This document shows, piece by piece, positions 5,149 through 26,550 of a stretch of 28,342 nucleotides of DNA. The notes under the pieces were generated by a model. The model saw only the letters and a program-made list of their open reading frames with translations. It was not told the DNA's origin and made no database searches. The stretch is from NCBI GenBank assembly GCA_005883295.1, contig VAWV01000061.1, positions 1 to 28,342 of the forward strand. Reading direction: 5' to 3'. The position numbers and the translations under genes are program-made. The DNA comes from Actinomycetota bacterium. Its GTDB lineage: Bacteria > Actinomycetota > Thermoleophilia > Solirubrobacterales > Thermoleophilaceae. Position 1 is the stretch's first letter. Every line of letters starts with the position of its first letter.

Positions 5149-6642
5149 TCAGTAGTAGTAGTAGCCCGCCGACATGGTGTCGGCGCCCAGCACCACGACG
5201 CCCACCGGCTGGATGCCGGTGCTCGCGAGCTGGTACTTGAAGCGCTCGATCTCGTCGCGGCGCGAGTGGTCGAGCCGCACCACGACGATGACGCCGTCCA
5301 CGCGCTGGGCCACCGGCAGCATGTCGCTGAACACGCCCATCGGCGGGCCGTCGACGATGACCGTGTCGCTGCGCGCGCGCGCCTCGCCGAGCAGGGTCTC
5401 GAGCCGGCGGCCGTTCAGCAGCACCTGCGGGCTCGGGGGCAAAGGCCCGGACGGGACCAGCGCGAGGTCGCCTGCGATTGCCACGGCCGGCCCCTTGCCG
5501 TTACGCGAGGGGACCGCGATGACCCGGCGCAGGCTGCGCTCGAGGGTGGCCTCTCCCACCAGGATCCGCGACACCCCGGTGTCGGAGTCGGTCTCGACCT
5601 TCAGCCGCTCGGAGAGCGCCGGCCTGCGAAGGTCCGCCTCGACGACCACCGGCGAGCGCCCATGCGCACCGAGCGCGAGCGCGAGGTTCGCGGCCACGGT
5701 GGACTTCCCCTCGCCGGGCGACGCGCTCGTCACCAGCAGCGATCGCAGGCGTTCGTTGGGGCTGAGCAGCCCGACGTTCGCCTCGAGGTTGTGGAAGCTC
5801 TCCAGGGTGCGCGCCATCGCCTTGGCGCCCCGCCTCGGCGTGGGGATCGTGCCGATCACGGGCACGCCGGGGAACAGCTCGCGGACCTGCTCCTCGCTCT
5901 TCACGTGCCGGTCGAGCCGGTCGCGCAGGAAGGCCAGCAGGATCCCGAGTAGCAGGCCGATGATCGCACCCGCGATGAGCGTCCGGACTAGGCGCGGCTT
6001 GAACGGAGCGCCGGGGATGCCGGCCGTCTGGACCACCTGGGCGTCGCCTGTCTGGACCTGCGACACGAGCGTGAGCTGGCGCGCCTGATCGGTGAGCCGG
6101 GTGCGCTGGGCCTTCGGGGCGTGGCTGTGCAGCGCCGTCTTGAGACGGGCCTTCACCACCGCGAGCACGGTGGCGTAGCGGCGTTTGTTAGCCGCGGCGC
6201 GGAACTTGATGAACGTCGAGGCGTACGCGTTCGCGTAGCGCGCCGTGAGCTTCGGGTTGCGGTCCTCGACGGTCATCGCGATCACGTTGGCGTCGCCCTC
6301 TCCGCTTGCCTGGACGTTGTCCGGTGCGCGCCGGAGGTGGAGGCTCTTGGCGGCCGCCAACCGAACGGCGGGAAGGTTGGCGAGTTGCGTGTCGGTCGCC
6401 GCCTGCCGGAGCGGGTCGGTACCGAACTCGCCGGGGTTGAACAGCTCCGTCGCGAGGTTGTTCTGCTGGACAAGGACCTTGGCCGTGGCCCGGTACTCCT
6501 TGTGCTGATCGTGCGCGTAGAGATACGCGCCGCCGGTCGTGGCCAGGACGCACAGCAGGACGAGCCACTTCTGCTCGCGAACCACCCGCAACTGGTCCCG
6601 AATCTGAGTAGCGAAGTCGCTTCGCGAGTTCTCAGTGGACAT
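5149..6642 (-). CDS. Polysaccharide co-polymerase / BY-kinase fusion (Wzz-Wzc/CpsCD type)
   Basis: Two TM helices flanking an extracellular domain. Walker A SPGEGKST, A' VEADLRRP, B IVDGPP, C-terminal tyrosine cluster GYYYY. GAGGG RBS. Confidence 0.9.
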   Translation of the reverse strand: MSTENSRSDFATQIRDQLRVVREQKWLVLLCVLATTGGAYLYAHDQHKEYRATAKVLVQQNNLATELFNPGEFGTDPLRQAATDTQLANLPAVRLAAAKSLHLRRAPDNVQASGEGDANVIAMTVEDRNPKLTARYANAYASTFIKFRAAANKRRYATVLAVVKARLKTALHSHAPKAQRTRLTDQARQLTLVSQVQTGDAQVVQTAGIPGAPFKPRLVRTLIAGAIIGLLLGILLAFLRDRLDRHVKSEEQVRELFPGVPVIGTIPTPRRGAKAMARTLESFHNLEANVGLLSPNERLRSLLVTSASPGEGKSTVAANLALALGAHGRSPVVVEADLRRPALSERLKVETDSDTGVSRILVGEATLERSLRRVIAVPSRNGKGPAVAIAGDLALVPSGPLPPSPQVLLNGRRLETLLGEARARSDTVIVDGPPMGVFSDMLPVAQRVDGVIVVVRLDHSRRDEIERFKYQLASTGIQPVGVVVLGADTMSAGYYYY

Positions 6643-6717: not shown

Positions 6718-6948
6718 CCCAGGCTTGAGGTGCGGAACCGCCGCTTCCTGCGCGCCGGCTAGCGCCCGGCGGCGGTGCGAGAGCAGGCGCAGGAGGGGCC
6801 CGGATGCGGGCTCGGGAGGAGGCGCACCGCCCGGCGCAGCGCTCCGCCGCGGTCCCGCGCGTTCAGACACGTCCGCTCGGTTGCGGCCGGGAACGACAAC
6901 CGACACGGGCAGGACATCTGGCAGGTCCAGTCGGCTCATAATGCTCCA

Positions 6949-7704
6949 GTGGTGAGTTCGCTACGCACGGTGGCCCGCGGCGTGCGCGACGTGTATCGCT
7001 CTCTGCGCTTCAGAGCTTGGGCCGCGCGGCTGAGGATCGACCTCAAGCGGAACGGCTGCCGGCTCGTCCTGGACGCGCCGTACGGGGCGCTGCTCGAGGA
7101 CGGGCCGGCAATCCGCGCGCGCATGGCCGGAGAGGGCGACGGCACGTTCACGCTCCGGATCGGCCGGAACGTGACGGTGGGAAAGGGCGTCCGCCTCGTG
7201 ATCTGGGCACTCGGGACAAACGTCCTCGAGATCGGGGACGACACCCTCGTCGACGATCAGGTGCATCTGCACCTGCGCGGCGGGGAGATCCGCATCGGGC
7301 GCGCCGCCGTCATCCGCGAGTTCGCCGTCCTCCGCTCCGAGGGCCTTCTCACGATCGGCGAGAAGGGCAACGTGAGCCACGGGAGCGTCATCCACTGCAG
7401 GGAGCGCGTCGCTCTCGAGGACCTGTCCAACATCACCGAGCACGTCACGGTGGTCGACTCGGACCACAGCCACGACGGCAGCGGCGACTACGTGCTCGAC
7501 CAGCCGCTGCGGGTGTCACCCGTGTCCATTGGTCCCAACACCTTCGTCGGGGCGGGATCCGTGGTTCTGCGAGGCGCCCGGGTCGGCCCGAACGCGATGG
7601 TCGCCGCTGGATCGGTCGTCCCCGAGGGCGACTACCCATCCGGCTGGCTGATCGGCGGATCGCCAGCCAAAGCCATCCGACCGCTCACGAAGCGCGACGA
7701 CTGA
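6949..7704 (+). CDS. Hexapeptide-repeat (LbH) acyltransferase, CysE/LacA/LpxA/NodL superfamily
   Basis: Repeats such as IGRNVTVG, IGDDTLVD, IGRAAVIR, IGPNTFVG; DSDH His; C-terminal GGSPAK. Start moved to GTG 6949, 6 nt after a CATAAT hexamer. Confidence 0.85.
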   Translation: MVSSLRTVARGVRDVYRSLRFRAWAARLRIDLKRNGCRLVLDAPYGALLEDGPAIRARMAGEGDGTFTLRIGRNVTVGKGVRLVIWALGTNVLEIGDDTLVDDQVHLHLRGGEIRIGRAAVIREFAVLRSEGLLTIGEKGNVSHGSVIHCRERVALEDLSNITEHVTVVDSDHSHDGSGDYVLDQPLRVSPVSIGPNTFVGAGSVVLRGARVGPNAMVAAGSVVPEGDYPSGWLIGGSPAKAIRPLTKRDD

Positions 7705-7721
7705 CCCCGTACGCTTCGGCG

Positions 7722-9374
7722 GTGCTCGCCGCCAGCCTTGATCGACTCCAGGCGGAGGTGCCCGACGACGCGCTCGTGCTCGACGTGGGCGGCTGGGTGA
7801 AACCGCTCACCCGCGCCGACTGGGTGATCGACATCATGCCCTACGAGACCAGGGGCATGCAGGGCCACGAGGGCGCCGGCACGGAGCGCTTCTCATCGGA
7901 GACCTGGGTCCAGCGCGACATCTGCGACCGCGACCGCTGGCCCTTCGCGGATGGGCAGTTCGACTTCGCCGTCTGCTCCCACACCCTCGAGGACGTTCGC
8001 GATCCCGTCTGGGTCTGCACCGAGCTCACGCGGGTGGCCCGAGCCGGCTACATCGAGGTCCCCTCCCGCCTCGACGAGCAGACCTACTACCGGCAGGGCC
8101 CGTGGGTCGGCTGGGGGCATCACCACTGGCTGGTCGACGTGCACGACCGCGGGATCGACTTCGTCTTCAAGCATCACGTCATCCACGGTCCCGAGGAGAA
8201 CCGCTTCCCGCCCGACTTCCTCGCTGGGCTGAGCGCCGAGGACCTGGTCCAGACCCTGTGGTGGGAGGGCGGGTTCGAATTCCGCGAGCGCGTCCTGCTG
8301 AGAGCCGAGGAGGTCGATTCCTACCTCGCCGACTTCGTGCGCGAGCACGGCGAGGCCGCTGCGCGCCGGCCCCGGTCACGCGCGCGCGACGAGAAGCTCG
8401 CGGTAGAGCCGCAGGTGCTCCGCAGCGGAGCGCTCGGTGGAGAAGTCCCCGGCGCGCGCGCGACAGGCGGCCGCGGTGCCCGGGTCCTCCGACAGCTCCA
8501 GCGTCTCCAGGAGCGCGCCCGCCAACTCTGCTTCGCCGCCCTCGAACAGCCGCCCCACGTCGGGTCGGTCAACGATCTCTGGCAGGGCCCCGTCGCGAGT
8601 GGCTACCACCGGCGTGCCGCACGCGAGCGACTCCACCAGCACGATCCCGAAGGCCTCGTTGTAGGAGGGGAGGACGGACACCCAGGCCCGGCGGAAGACC
8701 GGCGCCACGGCATCCGGGCCGGGCTCGAAGAGCTCCACGCCGTCGGTCTCCTCCAGGCGCGACGCGGTTCGCGGATCGCCGGGACGCGGCAGGAGCAGCC
8801 GCACACCGGGTCGGTCGCGGCGCACCAGCGGCAGGGCGCGCAGGAGAAGGTCCACGCGCTTGCGACTGTCCTCTGGCGCCGCCGCGTACGCGATCGCCGG
8901 CTCGGGCGCGCGCTCTCCGCGGGGGCGGAACTCGTCGAGCCGAACGCCGGCGTTGATCACGTGCGGGTCGATGCCGAACCACCGCCGCATGCCGTCGGCC
9001 GCAGCCCTGCTGTAGACGACGACCGCGTCGGCGCCGTCCAGCGCCTGGCGCAGGATGCGCAGCCGCAGGCGCCGCGCCGCGAGCACCGGACGGGTCGGGA
9101 GACCGCCGTAGTGGAAGACCGCCGGGCGGCCGGTCCGGCGCGCCCAGCCGACGGCCGCGAGCATGTCCGTGAGGTAGAACGCCTGCGCCAGGTCGTCGTC
9201 GCCCGTGAGCAGCGACGCGTAGCTGAAGGGCACGTGGGTCATGTGCTCCTGGAACCCGCGCCGCAGGAGCCACGCCTCGGGCGGCCGCCAGTGGCGGACC
9301 ACCAGGAAGCCGTCCTCCTCGCCGCTCGACGGCGCTCCAGGGTGGCTCGTGATCACGCGCGGCTTGTGACCTGA
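7722..9374 (+). CDS. Class I SAM-dependent methyltransferase-like protein (core about 7722-8380; frame runs on antisense through the GT4 gene)
   Basis: GTG 7722 after TACGCT. LDVGGW (degenerate motif I), WPFADGQFDFAVCSHTLEDVRDP (Methyltransf_11-like). Plausible protein ends near 8380, but the first in-frame stop is at 9372-9374. Confidence 0.65.
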   Translation: MLAASLDRLQAEVPDDALVLDVGGWVKPLTRADWVIDIMPYETRGMQGHEGAGTERFSSETWVQRDICDRDRWPFADGQFDFAVCSHTLEDVRDPVWVCTELTRVARAGYIEVPSRLDEQTYYRQGPWVGWGHHHWLVDVHDRGIDFVFKHHVIHGPEENRFPPDFLAGLSAEDLVQTLWWEGGFEFRERVLLRAEEVDSYLADFVREHGEAAARRPRSRARDEKLAVEPQVLRSGALGGEVPGARATGGRGARVLRQLQRLQERARQLCFAALEQPPHVGSVNDLWQGPVASGYHRRAARERLHQHDPEGLVVGGEDGHPGPAEDRRHGIRAGLEELHAVGLLQARRGSRIAGTRQEQPHTGSVAAHQRQGAQEKVHALATVLWRRRVRDRRLGRALSAGAELVEPNAGVDHVRVDAEPPPHAVGRSPAVDDDRVGAVQRLAQDAQPQAPRREHRTGRETAVVEDRRAAGPARPADGREHVREVERLRQVVVAREQRRVAEGHVGHVLLEPAPQEPRLGRPPVADHQEAVLLAARRRSRVARDHARLVT

Positions 9375-9491
9375 GCCCGCGAGCGCGGCGGCCAGGTCCC
9401 GGACGGTGCGCTCGGTCCCTCGCTGGACCTCCGGGTAGTAGCGCGGCGTGAGCAGCGCCACCCGCAATGTGGCCGGGTCGCGCCCGCTCAC
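8376..9491 (-). CDS. Glycosyltransferase family 4 (GT-B)
   Basis: RVALLTPRYYPEVQRGTER N-terminus, RKRVDLL, LPSYNEAFGIVLVESLACGTPVV (E-x7-E). GTG 9491 overlaps the upstream GT2 stop (GTGA). Confidence 0.9.
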   Translation of the reverse strand: MSGRDPATLRVALLTPRYYPEVQRGTERTVRDLAAALAGSGHKPRVITSHPGAPSSGEEDGFLVVRHWRPPEAWLLRRGFQEHMTHVPFSYASLLTGDDDLAQAFYLTDMLAAVGWARRTGRPAVFHYGGLPTRPVLAARRLRLRILRQALDGADAVVVYSRAAADGMRRWFGIDPHVINAGVRLDEFRPRGERAPEPAIAYAAAPEDSRKRVDLLLRALPLVRRDRPGVRLLLPRPGDPRTASRLEETDGVELFEPGPDAVAPVFRRAWVSVLPSYNEAFGIVLVESLACGTPVVATRDGALPEIVDRPDVGRLFEGGEAELAGALLETLELSEDPGTAAACRARAGDFSTERSAAEHLRLYRELLVARA

Positions 9492-10471
9492 AGGAAGAGG
9501 CTCTTGTGACGCACGCTTCCGGCGGCCAGCGCCGCGAGCTCTGCAGCGTCCACCGCCGCGTGCCCCGGCAGTTCGAGCGCCCTTCGGAGCTGGCTGCGCG
9601 GATAGGGGTGAACCGGATCGAGCAGCGTGCGCAGGTACGGGGCGGCCAGAAGCGCCGCTCCCGGGCGCCGCCCCATGGCGGCCATGCCACCGATCGCCAG
9701 GAGGAGCCAGCCGTGGCGTGCCCGCCACAGGCGCCCACCCAAGGGAAAGCGGCGGCGCAGCTCTTCGTGCCGCCCGACGACCGCCGGGAGGTCACGCCAT
9801 TTCCACGAAAGCCTGGCCATACCGACCGCGGTGAAGGACTCGACGGCGTGGTTCACGACAGCGTCGCGTGCGCCCACATGGGCCGCCCCGGCGGCACGCG
9901 CCCGCCAGAGCAGGTCCGCGTCCTCGCCGGAGCTCGCCAGGAGCTCGTCGAAGCCGCCCATCTGCTCGAGCACCTCCCGCGGATAGAGGATGTTGCACGT
10001 CTGGCCGAACGGGCCGGGCGGGTCGACCACGATCGTCCTGTGGTGGGGAGCAGCCAGCACATCGGCCTCGAACGGGTCGGCCCGTGTGGCTCCCTGGACG
10101 ATCGCGCCGGGATTGGCGCGTGACGCCGCGAGCAGGGCCTCGAGCCAGTCGGGCTCGGGCCGGCAGTCGTCGTCGGTGAAGGCAACGCATGGGCCGCTCG
10201 CCATGCGCCAGCCGACGTTGCGCTGCCTCGGAGCGGGCCCCGATCCAGGCGGCAGACGCCGTTCTCGGAGCGACACCCGCTTCGCGAGCGGATGTTCGCG
10301 GAGCAGGCTGACCGTGTCTTCCGACCGCGAATCGTGCACCACGATCAGCTCCCAGCGGTCGGGTGGGATGGTCTGCTCCTCGAGCGCGTTCAGCAGCCAT
10401 AGAAGCCGCAGCGGGCGCTCGTGCGAGGGGACGACGACGCTCACCTCAGATCTCATCGCGGGCGGAATCAT
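9488..10471 (-). CDS. Glycosyltransferase family 2
   Basis: VSVVVPSHER, LIVVHD, QRNVGW, AFTDDDC (DxD), GGFDE, GEDADL. Start may be ATG 10471 or 10456. Confidence 0.88.
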   Translation of the reverse strand: MIPPAMRSEVSVVVPSHERPLRLLWLLNALEEQTIPPDRWELIVVHDSRSEDTVSLLREHPLAKRVSLRERRLPPGSGPAPRQRNVGWRMASGPCVAFTDDDCRPEPDWLEALLAASRANPGAIVQGATRADPFEADVLAAPHHRTIVVDPPGPFGQTCNILYPREVLEQMGGFDELLASSGEDADLLWRARAAGAAHVGARDAVVNHAVESFTAVGMARLSWKWRDLPAVVGRHEELRRRFPLGGRLWRARHGWLLLAIGGMAAMGRRPGAALLAAPYLRTLLDPVHPYPRSQLRRALELPGHAAVDAAELAALAAGSVRHKSLFL

Positions 10472-13436: not shown

Positions 13437-14255
13437 ATGACCGCCGAGGCCCCGGCAGGCGACCAGCTCGCGGACCGGGTCGCGGGCATCAACTGGTACC
13501 ACTCCATCGAGCTCGCCCCCGGCGTCCTGACACCCGGATGGTTCGACACTCGCGCCATCGCACCGCGGCTCCCGATGCCGGCCGACCTCTCCGGCAGGCG
13601 CTGCCTCGATGTCGGTACGTTCGACGGCTTCTGGGCGTTCGAGATGGAGCGCCGCGGCGCGGCCGAGGTGGTGGCCCTCGACATCCCGGACCCGGATCTC
13701 TGGGACTGGCCTGCGAACACGGATCCCGATGCTCGCGAGGAGATCTCATCGCGCCGTCCGGGCGAGGGCTTCGCGCTCGCGCACGCCGCCCTCGGCTCCG
13801 CCGTCAACCGGCTCGAACGGAGCGTCTACGACCTCGACGCCGGCAAACTCGGGACCTTCGACTACGTCTACCTGGGCAGCCTCCTTCTCCACCTGCGTGA
13901 CCCCGTGCGGGCCCTCGAGCGCGTCCACGACGTCTGCCGCGGCGAGCTTCTCCTCGTGGAGACGATCGACCTGCCGCTGACGCTGATGATGCCCGGTCGG
14001 CCGGCCGCGACCCTCGACCTCCGCGGCCGGCCCTGGTGGTGGACCGCGAACACCGCCGGGGTCGTTCGGATGCTCGAGGCCGCACGATTCGCGCCGCTCG
14101 GAAGGCCCCGCCGGATCTACATGCCCGCCGGGCGGGGGCAGGAGGTCCCGCCGCTGTCGATACGCCGGCTCCTGCATCCGCAGGGACCGAAGCTCGCCCT
14201 GCTCGCGCTGAAGGGTGATCCGCACGTCGCCGTACGGGCCCGGCCACTGGCCTGA
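13437..14255 (+). CDS. Class I SAM-dependent methyltransferase (CmoB/DUF1698-like group), paralog A
   Basis: WYHSIEL..G..TPG, CLDVGTFDGFWAFEMERRGA, FDYVYLGSLLLHLRDP. Confidence 0.8.
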   Translation: MTAEAPAGDQLADRVAGINWYHSIELAPGVLTPGWFDTRAIAPRLPMPADLSGRRCLDVGTFDGFWAFEMERRGAAEVVALDIPDPDLWDWPANTDPDAREEISSRRPGEGFALAHAALGSAVNRLERSVYDLDAGKLGTFDYVYLGSLLLHLRDPVRALERVHDVCRGELLLVETIDLPLTLMMPGRPAATLDLRGRPWWWTANTAGVVRMLEAARFAPLGRPRRIYMPAGRGQEVPPLSIRRLLHPQGPKLALLALKGDPHVAVRARPLA

Positions 14256-14256
14256 G

Positions 14257-15201
14257 ATGGCGCCGCGGATCAGCGTCGTGATACCAACGCTGGCGCGGCA
14301 CGACCGGCTGGCGCTCGCGCTCGATCGGCTCGAGGGCCAGGCCGGCGGCCACGAGCTCGAGGTCGTGGTGGTCGAGGACGCGGACGCCGTCGAAGGCAAT
14401 CGCGTGAGCGCCGCGATCGCGGGCCGGCCATACGCCGTGCGCAGCCTGAGAGCCACGCTCGCGGGCGCCTCCGCCGCCCGCAACGTGGGCTGGCGGGCGG
14501 TGGAGGCAGACCTCATCCTCTTCATCGGCGACGACATCCTCGCCTCACCGCACCTGGTCGACGAGCACCTGGCGTGGCACCACCGCCATGCCGCGCCCGA
14601 GATCGGGGTGCTCGGTCACGTGCACTGGGCGCGCGAGCCCCGGCCGACCACCTTCATGCGCTGGCTCGAGCGCGGAATCCAGACGGACTACGGCTCGATC
14701 AAGGGGCAGCAGGCCGGGTGGTGGCACCTCTATACGACGAATGTGTCTTTGAAGCGGGGCATGCTCGAGCGGGTGGACGGGTTCGACGAATCCCAGCCCT
14801 TCCTGTACGAGGACCTCGACCTGGGGAAGCGGATGGCCGAGCACGGCTTCTCGCTCCTCTACAACGCCGACGCCTGGGCCGAGCACCTCCACCCCACGAC
14901 ACTCGACGACTGGCGCCGCCGGATGGCGATGGTGGCTCGCGCCGAACACCGCTTCGTGGCGCGCCACCCGGAGCTCGAGCCCTACTTCCACCGCATGTTC
15001 AGCGAGGCGGCAGAGGCGCCCCGCGCCCGCGGGCTTGCCGCGCGGCTCGCCCCACTGGTCCCTCAGGACACACCGCGACTCGGGCGGCGGGTCTGGGAGA
15101 GCGTGGACCGCAAGTACCGCCAGGCGCTCGCCCCGGACTTCCTGCGCGCCTGGGACGAGGCCGCCGCCGAACTGCGGTACGAGCTACCCGGGCGCTCCTG
15201 A
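14257..15201 (+). CDS. Glycosyltransferase family 2
   Basis: ISVVIPTLAR, AARNVGW, LFIGDD, NVSLKR, GFDE, YEDLDLG. Starts 1 nt after the methyltransferase stop. Confidence 0.88.
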   Translation: MAPRISVVIPTLARHDRLALALDRLEGQAGGHELEVVVVEDADAVEGNRVSAAIAGRPYAVRSLRATLAGASAARNVGWRAVEADLILFIGDDILASPHLVDEHLAWHHRHAAPEIGVLGHVHWAREPRPTTFMRWLERGIQTDYGSIKGQQAGWWHLYTTNVSLKRGMLERVDGFDESQPFLYEDLDLGKRMAEHGFSLLYNADAWAEHLHPTTLDDWRRRMAMVARAEHRFVARHPELEPYFHRMFSEAAEAPRARGLAARLAPLVPQDTPRLGRRVWESVDRKYRQALAPDFLRAWDEAAAELRYELPGRS

Positions 15202-16713
15202 ACCTCGCGCGCGCTCCGTCAGCTGCTGGCGATCCACCTTGCCGGTCGAGGTGCGCGGGAGAGAGCTCTCGATGAGTACGTCTCCCGGAACCATGTACCG
15301 CGGCAGCGCGCTCGCCGAGTGCCGCTTCAGCTCGGTCGGGCTCAGCTCCTCGTCGGACGCCACGTACGCGACCAGCCGGTGCCCGATACGCTCGTCGGGA
15401 ACCGCCACGACCGCGGCCTCGGCCACGGCGGGGTGGGCGTGCAGGACAGCCTCGATCTCACCGAGCTCGATGCGGTACCCACGGCTCTTGACCTGGTGGT
15501 CGCGGCGACCGAGGAACTCGTACTCGTCGGCCGGCAACCGGCGGACGAGGTCCCCGGTGCGGTACGCGGGATCGGGATAGCGGTCGTGCAGCGGGTTCTG
15601 GCGAAGCCGCTGGCCTGTCAGTGCGGGATCGCCCCAGTAGCCCTTCATGACAGTGGGGCCCCGGACCCACAGCTCTCCGACCTCGTCCTCTTGCACGGGC
15701 CTGAGGTCGTCGTCGAGCGCGAACACCTCCTGGTTCTCGCACGAGCGCCCGATTGGAAGCGGCGCGTCGTCGGACGACAGTTGCTCGGGGACGACGTGAT
15801 ACGTGCAGACGTTCGTCTCTGTGGGTCCGTACAGGTTCGCGAGGACGGCTTGCGGTACCAGCGCGCGTAGCACGCGCAGGTGCTTCATCGGGAACACCTC
15901 GCCCGCGAACAGCACGATCCTGAGCGCGGAGAGGTCGGCCTCGCTCGCGGCCCTCGGGAGCAGCATGAGGGCCGATGGCACCGAGTACCACACGGTGATC
16001 CCGTGGCGCCTGATCGCGGCGACCATACTCGCCGCCAGTGCCTCCTCGCCGGCCGCCAGGAGGTGGAGGCTCGCGCCCGCCATGGCGGCGCCGTAGAGGT
16101 CGAAGATCGAGAGGTCGAAGTGGAGCGGGGCGTGGCTCGACAGCCGGTCGTCCGAGCGGACCCCGAACCGGCTCACCGCCCACTCCACGAACGACAGCCC
16201 GTTGCGGTGCGTGAGCATCACGCCCTTCGGCCTTCCGGTGGAGCCCGACGTGTAGAGGATGTACGCGAGGTCGGACTCGCAAGCCCTGGACGCGTGAACG
16301 GGATCAAGCCCGCTCACGTCCTCATCAATGTCCAGCGCGGGCGCGCCCTTCGCGCGGATCGCGTCCAGGCGCTCGCCGTCGGCACACACGAGCCGGCACC
16401 CCGCGTCATCGATCATCGTCAGGGCGCGCACCTGCGGACTGCGCGGATCGAGCGGGACGTACGCCGCGCCCGCGCGCATGATCGCGTAGAGCATCGTGAT
16501 CGAGCGAGCGGACTTCGGAGCCCAGACGCCGACGCGGTCACCGCGACGAACCCCGAGCTCCTCGAGCGCAGCGGCCGTCTTCGCCACCGCGAGCTCGAGC
16601 TGCGCGTAGCTCAGCGTGGACTCTGAATCCTGCATCGCCATCCGGTCGCCGCCCGCGTCGGCCGCCAGCGCCACAAGACGGTCGAGGGTGAAGGCGCCCG
16701 CGGCAGGCGTCAC
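15184..16713 (-). CDS. Stand-alone amino-acid adenylation enzyme (type II NRPS A domain; predicted L-proline--carrier protein ligase)
   Basis: Core motifs LSYAQL, AYVPLD, LAYILYTSGSTGRPKG, HFDLS, NLYGPTE, YRTGDL, GRRDHQVKSRGYRIELGEIE, LPRTSTGKVDR. No C or T domain fused. Pocket residues read by eye: DLFYLALVCK. Confidence 0.85.
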   Translation of the reverse strand: MTPAAGAFTLDRLVALAADAGGDRMAMQDSESTLSYAQLELAVAKTAAALEELGVRRGDRVGVWAPKSARSITMLYAIMRAGAAYVPLDPRSPQVRALTMIDDAGCRLVCADGERLDAIRAKGAPALDIDEDVSGLDPVHASRACESDLAYILYTSGSTGRPKGVMLTHRNGLSFVEWAVSRFGVRSDDRLSSHAPLHFDLSIFDLYGAAMAGASLHLLAAGEEALAASMVAAIRRHGITVWYSVPSALMLLPRAASEADLSALRIVLFAGEVFPMKHLRVLRALVPQAVLANLYGPTETNVCTYHVVPEQLSSDDAPLPIGRSCENQEVFALDDDLRPVQEDEVGELWVRGPTVMKGYWGDPALTGQRLRQNPLHDRYPDPAYRTGDLVRRLPADEYEFLGRRDHQVKSRGYRIELGEIEAVLHAHPAVAEAAVVAVPDERIGHRLVAYVASDEELSPTELKRHSASALPRYMVPGDVLIESSLPRTSTGKVDRQQLTERARGSGAPG

Positions 16714-17816
16714 AGACCGAGGTCCCGGGCCACTATCCGACGCATCAGCTGCGAGGTCCCGGAATACAGGCGCCCACCCACGGCGTCACGAAGCCGCCGG
16801 CCATCGGACATGTCGAGCGCCGCCCTCAGCACTGTCTCCGACGCGAACAGCTTCACGGCCGCCGCCCTGGAGGCACGGGTCTCGCCGTGGTCGTACGACC
16901 ACGCGGTCTCGTAGAGAAGCGCGCGCGCCGCGTCGAGCGCCACCCGCACGTCAACGAGCACGTCGTTGTTGGGCTCCAGTCCGAACGCGGACCTCTTTGA
17001 ATGGCGAGCGGCGGCGACCTCCTCCTCGAGGGCCCTGTCGAGGGCGCCCAGCTGCGCGGCCATGATCAGCAGGCGCTCCCACTCCATCGACGAGGCGAAC
17101 ACCCGCGCCCCCCGGCCGGGCTTGCCGAGCACCGCCTCCGGTCCCACGTACACGTCGTCCAGCACCAGGTCCGCCATGGGCGAGGTGCGGAGGCCCATCT
17201 TCTCCGTCGGCTCGCCGGTGCTCACTCCGGCAGCGCCGGCCTCCACGAGGAAGGCGCTCACACCAAGCGCCCCTTCGGTCGCTGGGGCGCGCGCGAACAC
17301 GATGTAGAGGCGGGCGACGGGCGTGTTCGTGATGAGCGTCTTGCGGCCGCGCAGCACGTGACCGGCCCCGTCCGGCTCGGCGACGGTACGCAGGGCGAAC
17401 GCATCGCTGCCCGAATCCGGCTCGGTCATGGCGTGGAGACCAACCACCTCCCCGCGCGCCAGGCGAGGGAGGAAGCGCTCGCGCTGATCATCGCTCCCGT
17501 GCCGCCAGAGCGGGACGACCGCGCTCCAGAGGTGTGCGTTGATGGAGAAGACGAGGCCCGCGTCGACGCATCCGTACCCGAGCGCCTCCAGCGCCGCGGC
17601 CGTGGTAACGCGATCGGCGCCCGCCCCGCCGAGCTCCTGCGGCACGGGCAGGCCGCAGAGGCCCTTGGCCGCGCATTTACGCCAACCCTCGTGCCAGAAC
17701 TCGCCGCCCTCCTCGCGGTCGGCGTATCCGGGGTCCGCGAGCTCCTCCAGCGCGAATCGCCGCACGTCATCGACCAAGCCGCGTCGCTCTTCGTCCAGGA
17801 GCGGCGAGTGCACCAA
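16710..17816 (-). CDS. Acyl-CoA/acyl-carrier-protein dehydrogenase, prolyl-PCP dehydrogenase-like (possibly degenerate)
   Basis: FSINAHLW, HAMTEPDSGSDA, GRKTLITN, KMGLRTSPM, SMEWER, RDAVGGRLYSGTS. Start TTG 17816 or GTG 17813. Stop overlaps the A-domain start (GTGA). Confidence 0.8.
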   Translation of the reverse strand: MVHSPLLDEERRGLVDDVRRFALEELADPGYADREEGGEFWHEGWRKCAAKGLCGLPVPQELGGAGADRVTTAAALEALGYGCVDAGLVFSINAHLWSAVVPLWRHGSDDQRERFLPRLARGEVVGLHAMTEPDSGSDAFALRTVAEPDGAGHVLRGRKTLITNTPVARLYIVFARAPATEGALGVSAFLVEAGAAGVSTGEPTEKMGLRTSPMADLVLDDVYVGPEAVLGKPGRGARVFASSMEWERLLIMAAQLGALDRALEEEVAAARHSKRSAFGLEPNNDVLVDVRVALDAARALLYETAWSYDHGETRASRAAAVKLFASETVLRAALDMSDGRRLRDAVGGRLYSGTSQLMRRIVARDLGL

Positions 17817-17822
17817 CCTGAT

Positions 17823-17829
17823 TATCCTA
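17823..17829. promoter_or_regulatory. Overlapping divergent -10 elements (TATCCT on +, TAGGAT on -)
   Basis: TATCCTA reads TAnnnT on both strands; the minus-strand box lies 7 nt upstream of TTG 17816. Confidence 0.45.
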
Positions 17830-17860
17830 CGCGGCCGCCCAAGCCGGACGGGGTACCCCG

Positions 17861-18103
17861 ATCGCCGATATCGAGCCACTCCGCGAGTTCATTCGCAAGC
17901 AGTTCCTCTTCGACGAGAACGCGCAGCTCGACGAAGGCGACCCGCTGTTCCCCGACGTGATCGACTCACTCGGCGTGATGGAGGTCGTCGAGTTCGTGGA
18001 GGAGGCCTACGCGATAAGCATCGACGAGCAGGACCTGCTCGCCGACAACTTCAGGTCCCTCGACGCCATCTCCTCGCTGGTGGATCGCAAGCGTGCCGGT
18101 TGA
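17861..18103 (+). CDS. Acyl/peptidyl carrier protein (about 80 aa; not in ORF track; start codon ATC)
   Basis: Manual translation: (I/M)ADIEPLREFIRKQFLFDENAQLDEGDPLFPDVIDSLGVMEVVEFVEEAYAISIDEQDLLADNFRSLDAISSLVDRKRAG*. Acidic, DSL phosphopantetheine motif, 'DNFRSLDAI' type II carrier tail. Confidence 0.85.
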   Translation: MADIEPLREFIRKQFLFDENAQLDEGDPLFPDVIDSLGVMEVVEFVEEAYAISIDEQDLLADNFRSLDAISSLVDRKRAG

Positions 18104-19109
18104 TCGCCGCCGGATCGAGGCACGGGTACGGCTGAACCGCCTCGCGATCGGGGGATGGTCAGCGCAGACCCTCTTTGCGGCGAACAGGCTCGGCGTCTTC
18201 GACCTGCTTTGCGACGGGCGTGCGCTCACCGCGGCGGAGGTGGCCCGCGAGCTCGGGACCGAGGAGGATTCGACGGCGCGCCTCCTGGGAGCGCTCGCCG
18301 CGTTGGACCTCGTCGAGCACCGCGACGAGCAGTTCTGCAATTCACGCGCTGCCGAGGACTTCCTCGTCTCCGGCCGGCCGGAGTCGCTGGCCACCTGGGT
18401 GGCGCTCATCGGAGATTGGAACCAGACCTTCGCGCAGCTCGGCGAGTCGGTCCGCACCGGTGAGCCGGCCGAGGTCCCGGAGGAGCACCTCGGCCGGTCG
18501 CCGGAGTACACCCGCAGGTTCATCATCGGGATGCACGACTACGCGATCGGCCCCGGCCGCGAGCTCGCGCGCCACCTCGATCTGGAGGGGCGGCGGCGGC
18601 TGCTCGACCCGGGAGGGGGCCCGGGCACGTACTCGATCCTGCTCGCCGAGGCGAACCCCGGGCTGACCTGCACGGTGTTCGACCTCCCGGAGGTGGTCGA
18701 GATCGCGCGGGAGGTGATCGCCGAGCACGATCTCGAGGACCGCGTGTCGACCGCCGCCGGCGACTACCACTCGGACGAATTCCCAACGGGGTACGACGTT
18801 GCCCTCGTCTCGAACACGCTGCATCAGGAGGACTGGGACACCTGCGTCGCGATCCTGAGGAAGGCCCACGACGCGCTCGAGCCGGGCGGGCTCGCGGTAG
18901 TTCAGGCGATGTTTCTGAACGAGCGCGGCGACGGTCCGCTATGGCCGGCGCTCCACAACCTGCTCATGCTCCTCGTCTACCGGGGCGGTCGGGCGTATTC
19001 CGTCGAGCAAACGTTCCGCATGCTCGAGGAGGCCGGCTTCCAGCACCCGGAGATCCACAGGATGTCACCGTTCAACGCCGGTTCCTTCGTCACCGCGACT
19101 CGCGCCTAG
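18093..19109 (+). CDS. Methyltransferase family 2 (dimerisation HTH + Rossmann; CrtF/COMT-like O/N-methyltransferase)
   Basis: N-terminal AANRLGVFDLL...TAAEVARELG...RLLGALAALDL; LLDPGGGPGTYS, VFDLPEV, AGDY, SNTLH. Overlaps the carrier-protein stop by 11 nt. Confidence 0.87.
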   Translation: MPVDRRRIEARVRLNRLAIGGWSAQTLFAANRLGVFDLLCDGRALTAAEVARELGTEEDSTARLLGALAALDLVEHRDEQFCNSRAAEDFLVSGRPESLATWVALIGDWNQTFAQLGESVRTGEPAEVPEEHLGRSPEYTRRFIIGMHDYAIGPGRELARHLDLEGRRRLLDPGGGPGTYSILLAEANPGLTCTVFDLPEVVEIAREVIAEHDLEDRVSTAAGDYHSDEFPTGYDVALVSNTLHQEDWDTCVAILRKAHDALEPGGLAVVQAMFLNERGDGPLWPALHNLLMLLVYRGGRAYSVEQTFRMLEEAGFQHPEIHRMSPFNAGSFVTATRA

Positions 19110-19754
19110 CGCTTCAAGCCCGGCCTCGCTCAGCGTGCGGGGATAGGGCACGCGCCGGGCCGGGTTCCCTGAAACCATGGTCTCGGGCGGGACGTCGCGG
19201 GTGACGACGGACCCGGGGGCGACTATCGCGCGCGCCCCGATGGTGATCCCCCTGTAGAGCCCGCAGTTGTTGCCGATCCAGGCCCCGCTCTCGATCCGAA
19301 GCGGTGGACCTGTGACGAAGGATGCGCGACTGGCCGGCACCCCGTCCATCACCTCAGTCCAGTCGTGGATCGTGTCCGCGATCGTCACCCCGTGACCGAT
19401 CCCGCAGTCCTCGCCGATATGGATCCCGTTCACGGCCACCAGCCGGACGTTGTGGCCCACCACGGTTCGGTCGCCGAGTCGAAGGACGACCTGACCTCGT
19501 GGCGCGTACGCCTCAATGCAAATCCCCGATCGGATCTCCACGTCGCTCCCGATCGCAACGGACGCCGGATTGATGAGCGCGACCCTCGGGCTCGCAATTC
19601 GAGAGCCCGCTCCGAACTCCGCGAAGCGGGAGGCGAGGGGGTCTCCGTGTCCGATCGCGAGCGAGTCGTCGCGGAGTCTCTCGAGACGATTGAACAAGCG
19701 TTGGAGCAGCGCCCGCCATGGGCCCCGAAGCCTCCGACTCACGCGACCGGGCAT
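19065..19754 (-). CDS. Hexapeptide-repeat (LbH) acyltransferase
   Basis: IGSDVEIR, LGDRTVVG, IGEDCGIG, DTIH, IESGAWIG, IGARAIVAPGSVVTRDVPPETMVSGNPAR. Start ATG 19754 is a judgement; the ORF extends to 19859. Confidence 0.83.
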   Translation of the reverse strand: MPGRVSRRLRGPWRALLQRLFNRLERLRDDSLAIGHGDPLASRFAEFGAGSRIASPRVALINPASVAIGSDVEIRSGICIEAYAPRGQVVLRLGDRTVVGHNVRLVAVNGIHIGEDCGIGHGVTIADTIHDWTEVMDGVPASRASFVTGPPLRIESGAWIGNNCGLYRGITIGARAIVAPGSVVTRDVPPETMVSGNPARRVPYPRTLSEAGLEALGASRGDEGTGVER

Positions 19755-19880: not shown

Positions 19881-21339
19881 ATGGCCAACGAGGCTCAACT
19901 GCTAGAAGCTCCGGAGGCGCCGCAGCTCGAACCCGCGGTCTCCGGGGACGGCCAGTCGCTCCGCACGCGCGCAGCGCGCGGCACGGTGATCAACGCGGCC
20001 TTCATGGTCCTGCTCCAGACCATCGGCCTGCTGAAGGGCTTCATCATCGCCGCGTTCCTGACCCGCAGTGAGTACGGGGTCTGGGGCATCCTCGTGATAA
20101 CGATCGGGACGCTGGGCTGGCTGAAGGACGTCGGGATCTCGGACAAGTACGTCCAGCAGGACGAGCACGATCAGGAGGTCGCGTACCAGAAGGCGTTCAC
20201 GATCGACCTGATCTCGAACGCCGGTCTGTTCCTGCTGGTCCTCGTGGCGCTGCCCCTGTTCGCGCTCGCGTATGGCGACTGGAAGCTCGTGATCCCGGGC
20301 CTGGTGATCAACGCGACCCTGCTGGGCCAGTCGCTCAAGACCCCGAGCTGGATCTTCTACCGCGAGATGCGCTACGGCCGCCAGCGTCTCCTCGACGCGG
20401 TGGACCCGCTCGTCTCGTTCGCCGTGACGATCGGGCTCGCGATCGCGGGGCTCGGATACTGGGCGCTGGTTCTCGGTTTCTTCGCCGGCGTGTACGCGGG
20501 CGCGATCGCGGCCGTGATCGCCAGCCCATACCCGATCGCGCTGCGTTTCGATCGTAGGACCGGCCGCGAGTACTTCGGGTTCTCTTGGCCGCTGATCGTC
20601 GCGAGCTCGAGCGGCATCCTGGTCCCGCAGGTCGGCATGCTCGTAGCGACCCGCAAGCTCGGTCTCGGCGCGGCGGGCGTCCTCAGCCTCGCGGGAACGG
20701 TGGGCGTCTACACCAACAAGATCGACGAGCTCGTCACCTGGACGCTCTATCCGGCCATCTGCCGCGTGAAGGACCGCACGGAGCTGCTGTTCGAGGCGTT
20801 CGTGAAGTCGAACCGGCTCGCGCTCATGTGGGGCGTTCCGTTCGGCGTGGGGATCGCACTGTTCGCTTCCGAGCTGGTCCATTTCGGGATCGGCGATCGC
20901 TGGCGGCCGGCGATCGGGCTCCTCGAAGTCTTCGGCCTCGTGGCGGCCATCAACCACATCGGGTTCAACTGGATGTCGTTCTTCGGCGCCCGCGGCAACA
21001 CCCGTCCCATGGCGGTCTTCGGGCCCGTCGTCCTGCTCGCGTTTCTCGTCTTCGCCGTTCCGCTCCTCCTGCTCTACGGGCTCATGGGCTTCGGAGCCGG
21101 GACATGCCATGCGGGCCATCGCGCCGACCGTCCCGGCCGCAGCCGTCACGCTCGCGCTTCGCGCCGCAGCTCCCGCGCGGTCGCTCGCATGGGCGCTGAC
21201 CGAGCTCGCGGTGTACCTGCTGGTGACGGTCGTCGCCACGTGGCTGCTCGAGCGCGATCTGCTCCGCGAGGCGGTCGGATACGTGCACGGCCGAGCGCGT
21301 CCCCGGTTCGTGACCGGGCGCATCGCCGCGGACGGCTAG
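19881..21339 (+). pseudogene. wzx: Wzx-type oligosaccharide flippase, frameshifted near 21102/21103
   Basis: SLRTRAARGTVINAAF...FLTRSEYG...DVGISDKYVQ...REMRY...LYPA Wzx/PST pattern in one frame until ...GFGAG (21101). The hydrophobic C-terminus HAMRAIAPTVPAAAVTL...ERDLLREA continues in another frame to TAG 21339. Confidence 0.75.
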
Positions 21340-21381: not shown

Positions 21382-21939
21382 ATGGAGAGGATTCAGAGCA
21401 GGCTGGACGGCCCGATCCTGGTCGAGCCGACCATCCACCGCGACAAGCGCGGGTTCTTCCACGAGAGCTACCGGCGAGGCCGGTACTCGGAGCTCGGGAT
21501 GACCGCCGAGTTCGTGCAGGACAACCACTCCCGCTCCTCGCACGGGATCGTGCGCGGCATGCACTTCCAGGTTGGAAAGGGCATGGCGAAGCTGGTCCGC
21601 TGTGCCCGCGGCGCCATACTCGACGTGGTGGTGGACCTGCGCCGCGGCTCGCCGACATTCGGCGAGTGGGAGGCATTCGAGCTGAACGACGAGAACCTCC
21701 ACCAGCTGTACTGCCCGGTGGGGTTCGCCCACGGCTTCTGCGTCACCAGCGAGACCGCCGACGTGCTCTACAAGTGCGACGCGTACTACGACGAGTCGAT
21801 CGAGCGCGGCATCAGGTACGACGACCCCGATGTGGGGATCGAGTGGCCGGCGATCGAGCTCATCCCGTCGGAGCGTGACGCGAACGCCCCGCTCCTGTCG
21901 GAGGTCGCGGACCACCTCCCCTTCGAATACCGGCCCTGA
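21382..21939 (+). CDS. rfbC: dTDP-4-dehydrorhamnose 3,5-epimerase
   Basis: DKRGFFHESY, FVQDNHSRS, RGMHFQ, KLVRC..G.I.DV.VDLR.GSPTFG, GFAHGFC, YKC..YY, GIRYDDP. Confidence 0.93.
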   Translation: MERIQSRLDGPILVEPTIHRDKRGFFHESYRRGRYSELGMTAEFVQDNHSRSSHGIVRGMHFQVGKGMAKLVRCARGAILDVVVDLRRGSPTFGEWEAFELNDENLHQLYCPVGFAHGFCVTSETADVLYKCDAYYDESIERGIRYDDPDVGIEWPAIELIPSERDANAPLLSEVADHLPFEYRP

Positions 21940-25022: not shown

Positions 25023-25745
25023 TTGGCGACACGCGCCTCAGAGGATCTGCTGGAGCGCGCTAAGGCGCGCCGCTGGTACCACACGCTCGAGCTCGCGCCC
25101 GGCCACGTGACCGACGGCTGGTGGGACCACCGGCCGTTCGTGGACCGGTTCGGGCTGCCCGAGAGGATGGACGGCCTCCGGGCGCTGGACGTGGGTACGT
25201 GGGACGGCTACTGGGCCTTCGAGATGGAGCGCCGGGGGGCCGAGGTGGTTGCGCTCGACCTCGACGACGAGCGCGACCTCGACTACCCGCCGCGACGCCG
25301 GCCGACCGAGTTCCCGGACGAGCCGCGCGGGGCCGGCTTCGAGCTTGCCCGGCGGATCCTCGGCTCAAAGGTCGAGCGGGTGAACCGCAACATCTACGAC
25401 GCGACCCCGGAGGAGCTCGGGACCTTCGACCTGGTGTTCTGCGCCACGGTTCTGGTCCACGTGCGCGACCAGCTGCTCGCCCTCGAGCGGATCGCAAACC
25501 TCTGCGCGGGCACGTTCATCTTCGCCGACGAGTACGACCCGCTCGCCGGGCTGGCGCCGTTCCCGGCGAGCAGGTATCTCGCCGACAGGGACAAGGCGGT
25601 GGTGTTCTGGCTCCCGAGCGCTCGGACCTGGAAGAAGATGCTCTACACGGCGGGGTTCAACCGGGTGGAGGAGCGCGGCAGGTTCAAGCTCAGGGCGACC
25701 GACGGGCTCGCGGTGCGCCATCTCGTGCTCCATTCGTTCAAGTAG
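25023..25745 (+). CDS. Class I SAM-dependent methyltransferase (CmoB/DUF1698-like group), paralog B
   Basis: WYHTLELAPG..TDGW, ALDVGTWDGYWAFEMERRGA, FDLVFC..VLVHVRD. Start TTG 25023, 8 nt after TATCCT; the ORF's upstream part overlaps the GT2 and is not protein-like. Confidence 0.8.
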   Translation: MATRASEDLLERAKARRWYHTLELAPGHVTDGWWDHRPFVDRFGLPERMDGLRALDVGTWDGYWAFEMERRGAEVVALDLDDERDLDYPPRRRPTEFPDEPRGAGFELARRILGSKVERVNRNIYDATPEELGTFDLVFCATVLVHVRDQLLALERIANLCAGTFIFADEYDPLAGLAPFPASRYLADRDKAVVFWLPSARTWKKMLYTAGFNRVEERGRFKLRATDGLAVRHLVLHSFK

Positions 25746-26550
25746 CCGGACCGCCGGGGTCCGCAGCCCCGAGCCGCTCCAGGGCCCGCTGTATCACCTC
25801 GTAGTCGTGGGCCAGCACGCGTCCGTCCACGCCGTCCACCCCACTCCCCGGCAGCGAGTGGACCCATGGAAGTCGTCCCGCCGGCAGGCGGAACAGGACG
25901 CTCCCGTGAGCGCGGCGCTCCATTGACGCTCCCTGCGCCGCCGGCACCAGCGGGTCGTCGTCCGCGTATAGCAGGAACAGGCGCGCCGGCATCCTCGGTC
26001 GCCACAGGCGCACCGGGCTCGCGCGGGCCAGGGCGGCGCGGCCCTGACCGAAGACGGCCGACAGCGTGCGCGTGACGAATGCGCGCGTGGGTCGATCCCG
26101 CACCTCCGATGGCCACGCCGGCAGGTCCGTCGGCGCCGCGGCGGCGACCACGCAGCGAAGCCGGGAGCGCCTGACAGCGAGCACGAGTGCCCAGTAGCCG
26201 CCGCTGGACTCGCCATACGCGCATATCGGCGAAGCGCCGTAGCGCTGCTCCGCGTAGTCGAACGTGGCGACGACGTCCGCGAGGCCGGCGCGCCCATTGC
26301 GGTAGGTGGACGTCAGCGCGCGCCAGCCCCAACCGCGCACCGCGGCGGGGCCCTCCGCCGCCCAGCCGCCCTTGTGGAACAGCAGGATGGTCCCTCGCAC
26401 GGATCCGGCCGGGGGTGAGAGCAGCTCGGCGTACTCGCGGCCCACGGTCATCACTCGGAGCCCCTCGAGGGATCGCTCGTGCCCGCCGCACCCCGCGATC
26501 ACGGTTGCCACGAGCGCCGCGCACGCAAGGTTGTAGCGGGAGGTGATCAC
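25738..26550 (-). CDS. Alpha/beta-hydrolase (esterase-like) with predicted lipoprotein signal
   Basis: Signal MITSRYNLACAALVATVIAG-C (lipobox IAGC). FHKGGW oxyanion-type motif, GESSGG nucleophile elbow, ADDPLVP (Asp), PWVHS (His). Confidence 0.72.
   Translation of the reverse strand: MITSRYNLACAALVATVIAGCGGHERSLEGLRVMTVGREYAELLSPPAGSVRGTILLFHKGGWAAEGPAAVRGWGWRALTSTYRNGRAGLADVVATFDYAEQRYGASPICAYGESSGGYWALVLAVRRSRLRCVVAAAAPTDLPAWPSEVRDRPTRAFVTRTLSAVFGQGRAALARASPVRLWRPRMPARLFLLYADDDPLVPAAQGASMERRAHGSVLFRLPAGRLPWVHSLPGSGVDGVDGRVLAHDYEVIQRALERLGAADPGGPAT

Follow-up and report, generated by a model that had tools for sequence, protein, structure and literature searches.

Why would a surface-polysaccharide locus in a soil actinobacterium carry genes that are familiar from antibiotic biosynthesis? 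We address this question for contig VAWV01000061.1 of the Thermoleophilaceae assembly GCA_005883295.1, a stretch of 28,342 nucleotides that we refer to throughout as the window. The window is an entire 28.3-kb contig (C134) with a G+C content of ~71%, and it belongs to a soil metagenome-assembled genome (MAG) of 2.57 Mb that is 84% complete. The TrpE that it encodes is 87-88% identical to proteins labelled Thermoleophilaceae, which makes an uncultured member of the Thermoleophilia (Actinomycetota) the most likely host. Five of its genes, together spanning positions 15184-19754, encode a stand-alone adenylation enzyme, a flavoenzyme of the acyl-CoA dehydrogenase (ACAD) family, a small carrier protein, a methyltransferase, and an acyltransferase of the left-handed beta-helix (LbH) type, hereafter LbH2. 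Our analysis indicates that this set very probably loads L-proline onto the carrier and oxidizes it there. We hold with moderate confidence that the whole chain runs on from there, ending with the acylation of a surface glycan by LbH2 with a proline-derived heterocyclic acyl group.

The gene map was built from frame analysis based on G+C content at third codon positions (GC3) and from Pfam scans of the open reading frames (ORFs) in the window. The adenylation enzyme (509 aa, 15184-16713; AMP-binding, 3.6e-87, plus AMP-binding_C) and the ACAD (367 aa, 16710-17813; three ACAD domains) are encoded on the minus strand, and the stop codon of the ACAD gene overlaps the adenylase start as GTGA. Divergently from them, on the plus strand, lie the genes for the 80-aa carrier (17861-18103), with its phosphopantetheine serine in VIDSLGV, and for a family-2 S-adenosylmethionine methyltransferase (338 aa, 18093-19109; Methyltransf_2, 1.2e-27; Dimerisation, 4.3e-15), whose GTG start is located within the end of the carrier gene. 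The gene for LbH2, a hexapeptide acyltransferase (229 aa from the ATG at 19754; minus strand, 19065-19754; Hexapep, 2.8e-11), converges on the methyltransferase gene. An initial annotation of this stretch had described an antibiotic-type pyrrole starter module inside a surface-glycan locus. Every gene it named is present in the Pfam scans, and so are the coupling of adenylase and ACAD, the divergent carrier with a DSL motif, and the coupled family-2 methyltransferase. The flanking genes that it listed, for a family-2 glycosyltransferase (GT2), an LbH acyltransferase, wzx and rmlC, are also all there; wzx is on the plus strand.

Which acid would this adenylase activate? Strong sequence support points to L-proline, which the enzyme is predicted to load onto the carrier. 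The adenylase scores 389.8 bits against the NCBIfam model TIGR01733, above the cut-off, and its best stand-alone match in the PDB is PltF (6o6e, 1.4e-101), the L-proline--[L-prolyl-carrier-protein] ligase; PDB entries of LgrA score higher, but their scores sum two adenylation domains. The ten-residue specificity pocket reads DLFYLALVCK, with the positions set by the core motifs FDLSIFD, ITVWYS, VLFAGE, NLYGPTETNVC and GK and not by a computed alignment to GrsA. Stand-alone L-proline adenylation domains, a class in which AnaC is listed, share the pattern L(L/F)YLALVC, and modular ones VQ(Y/F)IAHVV (PMC3874040); the inner eight residues of the pocket match the stand-alone consensus of that study exactly. 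The code DL[FL]-Y-L-A-L-V-C is kept in all eight of the related cassette and triad adenylases that we examined. The earlier assignment to the PltF/RedM/CloN4/AnaC type of proline adenylase is therefore borne out by both the exact code and the best stand-alone structure.

The ACAD is a predicted prolyl-S-carrier dehydrogenase, and its membership of that family is supported by sequence. Its best PDB matches are AnaB (4irn, 1e-72), a prolyl-acyl carrier protein (ACP) dehydrogenase, and PigA (5zw0, 1.3e-63). Among NCBIfam models, RedW (307 bits) and PigA (303 bits) lead, with the next family at 181 bits; both leading scores stay under the equivalog cut-offs of these models (650 bits for RedW, 500 for PigA), which weighs against the pathway proposed below. 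With an AlphaFold model of the enzyme (pLDDT 84.8), the top three Foldseek matches in Swiss-Prot are RedW (42% identity), PigA and PltE; identity to the named prolyl-carrier dehydrogenases ranges from 32 to 42%. A locus search with an ACAD alignment, in which relatives among the matches listed were at most 44% identical, supplied the named outgroups and the loci from other phyla. In a maximum-likelihood tree, the check that had been proposed for this enzyme, it falls into a clade of prolyl-carrier-dehydrogenase-like ACADs (100/99) that is separate from the housekeeping ACADs of the same genome, and the ACADs of methyltransferase-bearing cassettes are monophyletic (100/100). The W-E-R motif (E246) is invariant, and we assume its Glu to be the catalytic one by analogy with isovaleryl-CoA dehydrogenase and AnaB, not from an alignment to them; the TEPxxGSD and ITN flavin motifs are retained as well. 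The gene evolves with a ratio of nonsynonymous to synonymous substitution rates (dN/dS) of 0.23-0.27. Its real start is probably the GTG at 17813 or the TTG at 17816, and we use the shorter gene because the homologues align from there; an earlier GTG, at 17879, was rejected, as it would make the gene overlap the carrier ORF and homologues begin at 17813/17816. With the shorter ACAD, ~47 bp separate the divergent ACAD and carrier starts.

The carrier is small and separate, as in the PltF/PltL/PltE type of cassette, despite Pfam scores under the cut-offs (PP-binding, 17 bits; PP-binding_2, 18 bits). In NCBIfam, it scores 37 bits against the ACP model AmcB and 31 bits against OlsHI-ACP. Its orthologues are 50-72% identical, with dN/dS of 0.12-0.27. 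The genome contains one phosphopantetheinyl transferase (PPTase) domain, on contig C213.

The other two members of the set are what set it apart. The methyltransferase is the most conserved of the cassette genes (65-81% identity) and is coupled to the carrier gene in every cassette; its best PDB matches are DsyB (7e-35), which carries out S-methylation, SibL (C-methylation) and MmcR (O-methylation). LbH2 is a candidate, proposed from sequence and gene context, for the enzyme that would transfer the acyl group from the carrier to a sugar. It scores 67 bits against a WcaF-family NCBIfam model, under the cut-off, and its PDB matches are maltose, galactoside and polysialic-acid O-acetyltransferases. 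The His of the D(T/S)(I/M)HDW motif is conserved in its orthologues, and an Arg-rich extension of ~50 aa precedes the fold at the N-terminus. These orthologues are 76% (L031), 70% (L033) and 60% (L038) identical to LbH2, each is encoded no more than one gene away from the cassette, and the identities fall in parallel with those of the other four cassette genes. A complex prediction for the LbH2 trimer with the carrier gave a score of 0.01 and is not used as evidence.

Does the cassette keep the same company elsewhere? The block of methyltransferase and carrier genes, divergent from ACAD and adenylase genes, is found in eight contexts. These are drawn from the window, two genus-mates (G001 and G006, the latter an unpublished genome) together with the JGI contigs L031 and L032, a Solirubrobacteraceae MAG (L033), L035, the P0056 locus, and L038, the P0055 locus and L039. 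Glycan loci make up six of the eight contexts, where the block is accompanied by genes for GT2 or GT4 glycosyltransferases, Wzx or Wzm/Wzt, Wzz, sulfotransferases, Glf or PMT, and a Hexapep gene directly adjoins the block in seven. In G001, wzx is on the opposite side of the block, and LbH2 is still with the block. Distribution across genomes tells a similar story: of the 40 relatives, only G001 and G006 have an orthologue of the ACAD (76-77%), and these two are likewise the only ones with orthologues of the methyltransferase (81%) and of LbH2 (76-79%); for all three, the next-best matches are generic (<=37% identity). In a sample of 400 genomes of the class, only four have an ACAD homologue even at 42-48% identity, so the cassette is a rare and patchy accessory module. 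Where it does occur, pairwise dN/dS of all five genes is 0.12-0.31.

More distant triads of adenylase, carrier and ACAD (41-50% identity, without the methyltransferase) are found within Actinomycetota as well as in at least eight further phyla, and they too are located amid glycan genes. Their neighbors include Bac_transf, DegT, PPTase, GT1/GT4, GT2, Wzx and sugar-nucleotide genes, in some cases with a halogenase-like gene as well; the families that recur around them include neither Condensation nor ketosynthase domains. Synteny, a check that had been suggested earlier, shows glycan genes beside the cassette in six of the eight contexts and around the more distant triads likewise.

A nonribosomal peptide synthetase (NRPS) or polyketide synthase (PKS) elsewhere in the genome, as the acceptor that accounts for the product, had been named in advance as an outcome that would speak against a role in glycan decoration. 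None was found. The window holds no condensation, ketosynthase or PKS gene, on which the initial annotation and the Pfam scans agree. Over the whole 84%-complete genome, Pfam gives no match to a Condensation domain and no convincing ketosynthase, only a 26-bit partial match to ketoacyl-synt (PF00109) on another contig. This weakens the case for an NRPS or PKS partner. A FabF/FabB-type ketosynthase was likewise not found in the MAG, which may reflect a gap left by its 84% completeness.

The pathway that we propose begins with the PPTase from contig C213, which would prime the carrier. The adenylase would activate L-proline and charge the carrier, a step with strong sequence support, and the ACAD would then oxidize the prolyl-S-carrier, removing either four electrons to give pyrrolyl-2-carbonyl, as the RedW, PigA and PltE type does, or two to give pyrroline, as the AnaB type does. 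The family-2 methyltransferase may next methylate the carrier-bound ring at N or C, a step suggested solely by the conserved coupling of its gene to that of the carrier. The product would be a methylated pyrrole- or pyrroline-2-carbonyl group. Finally, in the cytoplasm and ahead of the Wzx flip, LbH2 would take the acyl group off the carrier thioester and place it on a hydroxyl of a sugar, either in the lipid-linked repeat unit or in a nucleotide sugar. We infer this last step from synteny, co-distribution among relatives, and a sugar O-acyltransferase fold, and the rmlC pathway is a possible source of the acceptor sugar. For the earlier idea of a glycan-decoration module, this means that the proline enzymology stands, as does the link to glycan loci and to an LbH enzyme (from synteny and co-distribution), while attachment to the polysaccharide, the identity of the group and the use of a thioester by the LbH enzyme are still inferred. 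We also put forward, tentatively and with less than even confidence, a more far-reaching version: soil Thermoleophilia (and, via the related triads, members of many phyla) would esterify an exported, rhamnose-containing, heavily methylated polysaccharide with methylated pyrrole-2-carboxylate built on a carrier by antibiotic-type enzymes, the LbH enzyme having exchanged acyl-CoA for acyl-carrier protein as its donor and the dehydrogenase, in the clade of the window, working without cross-subunit contacts to the adenosine of flavin adenine dinucleotide (FAD).

Several observations weigh against the proposed pathway, and some of them favor an alternative. The cassette might make a small free metabolite, or its product might go to something other than a glycan (a lipid, a protein or a small molecule), with the glycan loci being variable, horizontally exchanged islands in which it happens to reside. 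Two of the eight contexts (L035 and the P0056 locus) have no glycan genes. In L035, an SGNH protein takes the place of the LbH enzyme; its gene is coupled to that of the adenylase, and it could release the free acid, as the SGNH/GDSL fold includes thioesterases such as TesA. Halogenase-like genes near some triads recall halopyrrole antibiotic pathways. Against the proposed pathway more generally, the structures nearest to the methyltransferase methylate free small molecules (at S, C or O), and with the genome 84% complete an NRPS or PKS could lie in the missing part. The literature that we searched holds no description of a glycan with a pyrrole- or pyrroline-type acyl group, which is weak evidence, as subscription journals are mostly outside its coverage. 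We nevertheless consider a free metabolite or non-glycan product unlikely, given that six of the eight contexts and the distant triads are situated within glycosyltransferase, Wzx, Wzz or ABC-export loci, that an LbH enzyme of the sugar-O-acyltransferase type accompanies the cassette, and that neither a Condensation domain nor a convincing ketosynthase was found in the genome. The acyl group could also reach the glycan by another route, with LbH2 being an ordinary acetyl-CoA O-acetyltransferase and a different protein acting as the transferase, e.g., the alpha/beta hydrolase encoded at 25738-26550, by analogy with CloN7/CloN2. The nearest characterized relatives of LbH2, including its nearest structures, do use acetyl-CoA and not carrier-protein thioesters; the LbH gene beside the cassette in L039 is not orthologous to LbH2, and L035 has none; and, to our knowledge, no LbH enzyme is used in the pyrrolyl transfer to noviose in clorobiocin biosynthesis. 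This route strikes us as distinctly unlikely: LbH2 orthologues track the cassette in where they lie, how far they have diverged and which relatives have them, the alpha/beta hydrolase gene is 6 kb away, and LpxA and LpxD are LbH enzymes that accept acyl-carrier-protein donors.

A different concern is whether the module is still active in this organism. The carrier ORF has no ATG, GTG or TTG ahead of its core, and an ATC (17861-17863) occupies the position of the ATG, GTG or TTG start codon of all orthologues. The ATC and the ACAD region are identical in contigs assembled independently from four soil-metagenome runs; because all four reproduce it, the ATC is a real non-canonical or lost start, genuine in the population, and not an assembly error. 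In the ACAD (at window positions 16710-17015), a 13-aa deletion removes the QxxGGxGY segment ('LLQVHGGYGYTxE') and the RxQFG segment ('RxQFG.PI') is degenerate; in classical ACADs these two segments contact the adenosine part of FAD from the neighboring subunit. A decaying module, with the carrier start codon and the FAD-binding segments lost, is nonetheless very unlikely in our judgment. Both ACAD changes are common to at least five sequences, the window copy and four (76-82% identity) of the twelve homologues aligned with it, and homologues of <=69% identity keep both segments. For cassette-gene pairs that include the window copy, ACAD and carrier among them, dN/dS is 0.13-0.30; the five genes are free of stops and frameshifts; a Shine-Dalgarno-like motif, GGACGGGG, is located 7 nt before the ATC; and wzx, which has the sole apparent frameshift of the locus, lacks 80 bp in this assembly (see below). 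As the change in the ACAD is common to a clade and the gene is under purifying selection, we read the clade without the two FAD-adenosine segments as derived yet probably functional. It could be argued, finally, that the adenylase takes some other acid (D-Ala, Ser or a fatty acid) and that the ACAD performs an ordinary alpha,beta-desaturation, in a system like Dlt or the aminomalonyl-ACP (Zma) one, and such a substrate had been listed at the outset as grounds for abandoning the proline assignment. DltA models and the model of the exosortase-A-associated ligase (TIGR03098) do score the adenylase at 265-315 bits. All of these scores are far under the NCBIfam cut-offs (for the DltA models, 265-286 bits vs 476-560), the pocket is the exact stand-alone proline code with PltF as best stand-alone structure, and the ACAD is nearest to prolyl-carrier dehydrogenases by three independent methods (PDB, NCBIfam and Foldseek), which makes this option extremely unlikely.

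How does the proposed glycan-acylation module compare with known systems? Type II NRPS cassettes that convert proline to pyrrole include PltF/PltL/PltE (pyoluteorin), RedM/RedO/RedW and PigI/PigG/PigA (prodiginines), and CloN4/CloN5/CloN3 (clorobiocin). The module resembles them in its stand-alone adenylase with a proline code, its small carrier, and an ACAD nearest to RedW, PigA and PltE, and it would work like them in its first two steps; in clorobiocin, the pyrrole acid is also esterified to a 6-deoxysugar. It differs in that its ACAD is only 32-42% identical to theirs, scores under the equivalog cut-offs and lacks the two FAD-adenosine segments. It differs further in that no ketosynthase, condensation or CloN2/CloN7-type partner for the hand-over was found in the window or the 84%-complete genome, and in that an LbH sugar-acyltransferase homologue and a family-2 methyltransferase are added, within a Wzx/Wzy polysaccharide locus. 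The AnaC/AnaD/AnaB system of anatoxin-a, in which prolyl-ACP undergoes a two-electron oxidation to pyrroline, is similar in that the ACAD matches AnaB better than any other PDB entry and the adenylase belongs to the stand-alone proline class of AnaC; the AnaB product, on the other hand, is taken over by a polyketide synthase, an enzyme that was not found here.

From the side of cell-surface chemistry, DltA/DltC and the TIGR03098 set offer a parallel, as in those systems, too, a polymer at the cell surface receives its acyl or aminoacyl group by way of an adenylase and a small carrier. Unlike Dlt, the module has a proline and not an alanine code, adds an ACAD and a methyltransferase, and would rely on a predicted cytoplasmic LbH transfer and not on an MBOAT/DltB membrane relay; the adenylase is under the DltA cut-offs, and the ORFs of the window include none recognized as MBOAT or DltD-like. 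LbH2 itself shares its fold family with WcaF, with the maltose, galactoside and polysialic-acid O-acetyltransferases, and with LpxA and LpxD, and keeps the His of D(T/S)(I/M)HDW. It is unlike the known LbH enzymes in its Arg-rich extension and in being tied by synteny and distribution to a carrier-protein cassette.

If the proposed pathway is correct, a type of chemistry so far described only for antibiotics and pigments (pyoluteorin, prodiginines, clorobiocin, anatoxin) also decorates surface polysaccharides, and an aromatic heterocyclic ester would join acetyl, pyruvyl, succinyl, aminoacyl and methyl groups among glycan substituents. Such a group would change surface hydrophobicity, recognition by phages and antibodies, and UV absorbance, and acyl-carrier protein would be a new class of donor for acyltransferases of the WcaF/Maa type. 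There is also a practical consequence: genome-mining tools that equate adenylase, carrier and ACAD with a pyrrole natural-product cluster would mis-assign such loci.

By gene content, the surroundings of the cassette are a Wzx/Wzy-type surface-polysaccharide locus, with Wzx, a polymerase- or ligase-like Wzy_C protein, a Wzz/GNVR/P-loop protein, one GT4, four GT2 enzymes, rmlC, rmlD and an epimerase/dehydratase; the window showed no initiating phosphoglycosyl transferase. The genes for the Wzy_C protein (3659-5134; Wzy_C, 3.5e-22) and the Wzz/GNVR/P-loop protein (5149-6642) are on the minus strand and are followed by those for a first LbH acyltransferase, LbH1 (6775-7704, plus strand), a methyltransferase (~7700-8400, plus strand) and the GT4 (8376-9728). 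Three of the GT2 genes lie before the cassette, as does the gene for a 644-aa protein whose sole match, a weak one, is glycosyltransferase-like, and a further methyltransferase gene is found between the latter and the cassette. The GT2 gene at 14215-15201 (plus strand; Glyco_tranf_2_3, 2.5e-14) converges on the adenylase gene. On the other side of the cassette are wzx (19881-21339, plus strand; Polysacc_synt_3, 1.4e-38), rmlC, encoding dTDP-4-dehydrorhamnose 3,5-epimerase (21382-21939, plus strand; dTDP_sugar_isom, 2.5e-65), and rmlD (21943-~22830, minus strand). Beyond rmlD come genes for an NAD epimerase/dehydratase, the fourth GT2 and a methyltransferase, then the alpha/beta hydrolase and, after it, a PMT-like GT-C protein.

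The flippase gene requires some comment. A minus-strand ORF at 19902-21323 was considered as wzx and ruled out, having no Pfam match and the GC3 pattern of an antisense shadow. On the plus strand, wzx is split over two frames in the window, where a tblastn search with the L033 wzx changes from frame 3 to frame 1 between 21092 and 21193. Contigs from three independent soil-metagenome runs have 80 additional letters at 21102/21103, and those of a fourth run stop at that point. As 80 leaves a remainder of 2 on division by 3, the insertion brings both halves into one frame of 512 aa, the same length as the L031 orthologue. A pseudogene is thereby ruled out, and since three runs hold the 80 letters, the apparent frameshift is an assembly omission or a minor variant.

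Related triads also occur in other settings. The homologues in G011/L029, L048, L056 and L065 adjoin megasynthase-sized ORFs. In the genus-mate locus L029 (G011:C29:1-20000), an ACAD of 44% identity has an adjacent adenylase and small carrier, with ORFs of 1655 and 913 aa and a second adenylase as neighbors; this arrangement resembles a triad linked to a megasynthase more than the glycan type. Genes of the Trp_halogenase family lie near some triads (the P0056 locus; L037, 15741-17183), as they do in halopyrrole pathways; the window has no halogenase-like gene. The loci L031, L038, L039 and P0055 often encode sulfotransferases, a carbamoyltransferase and several methyltransferases as well, and in L038 a 2-oxoglutarate-Fe(II) oxygenase gene adjoins that of the family-2 methyltransferase. 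Such gene sets suggest that the polysaccharides of these soil Actinomycetota are decorated very heavily.

Two ORFs in the first third of the window are longer than the genes that they contain. A trpE-like ORF of 616 aa (128-1978), which has an amidase gene nearby, is overstated, as its close homologues are all 498 aa long and cover 81% of it; judging from these lengths, the real start is ~118 codons downstream of the ORF start at 128. The ORF of the methyltransferase that follows LbH1 (7701-9374) aligns to a 255-aa homologue only as far as 8348 and runs antisense across the GT4 gene to its first stop at 9374, and the excess length may come from a minor error in the assembly, or the frame may be open by chance at such a high G+C content.

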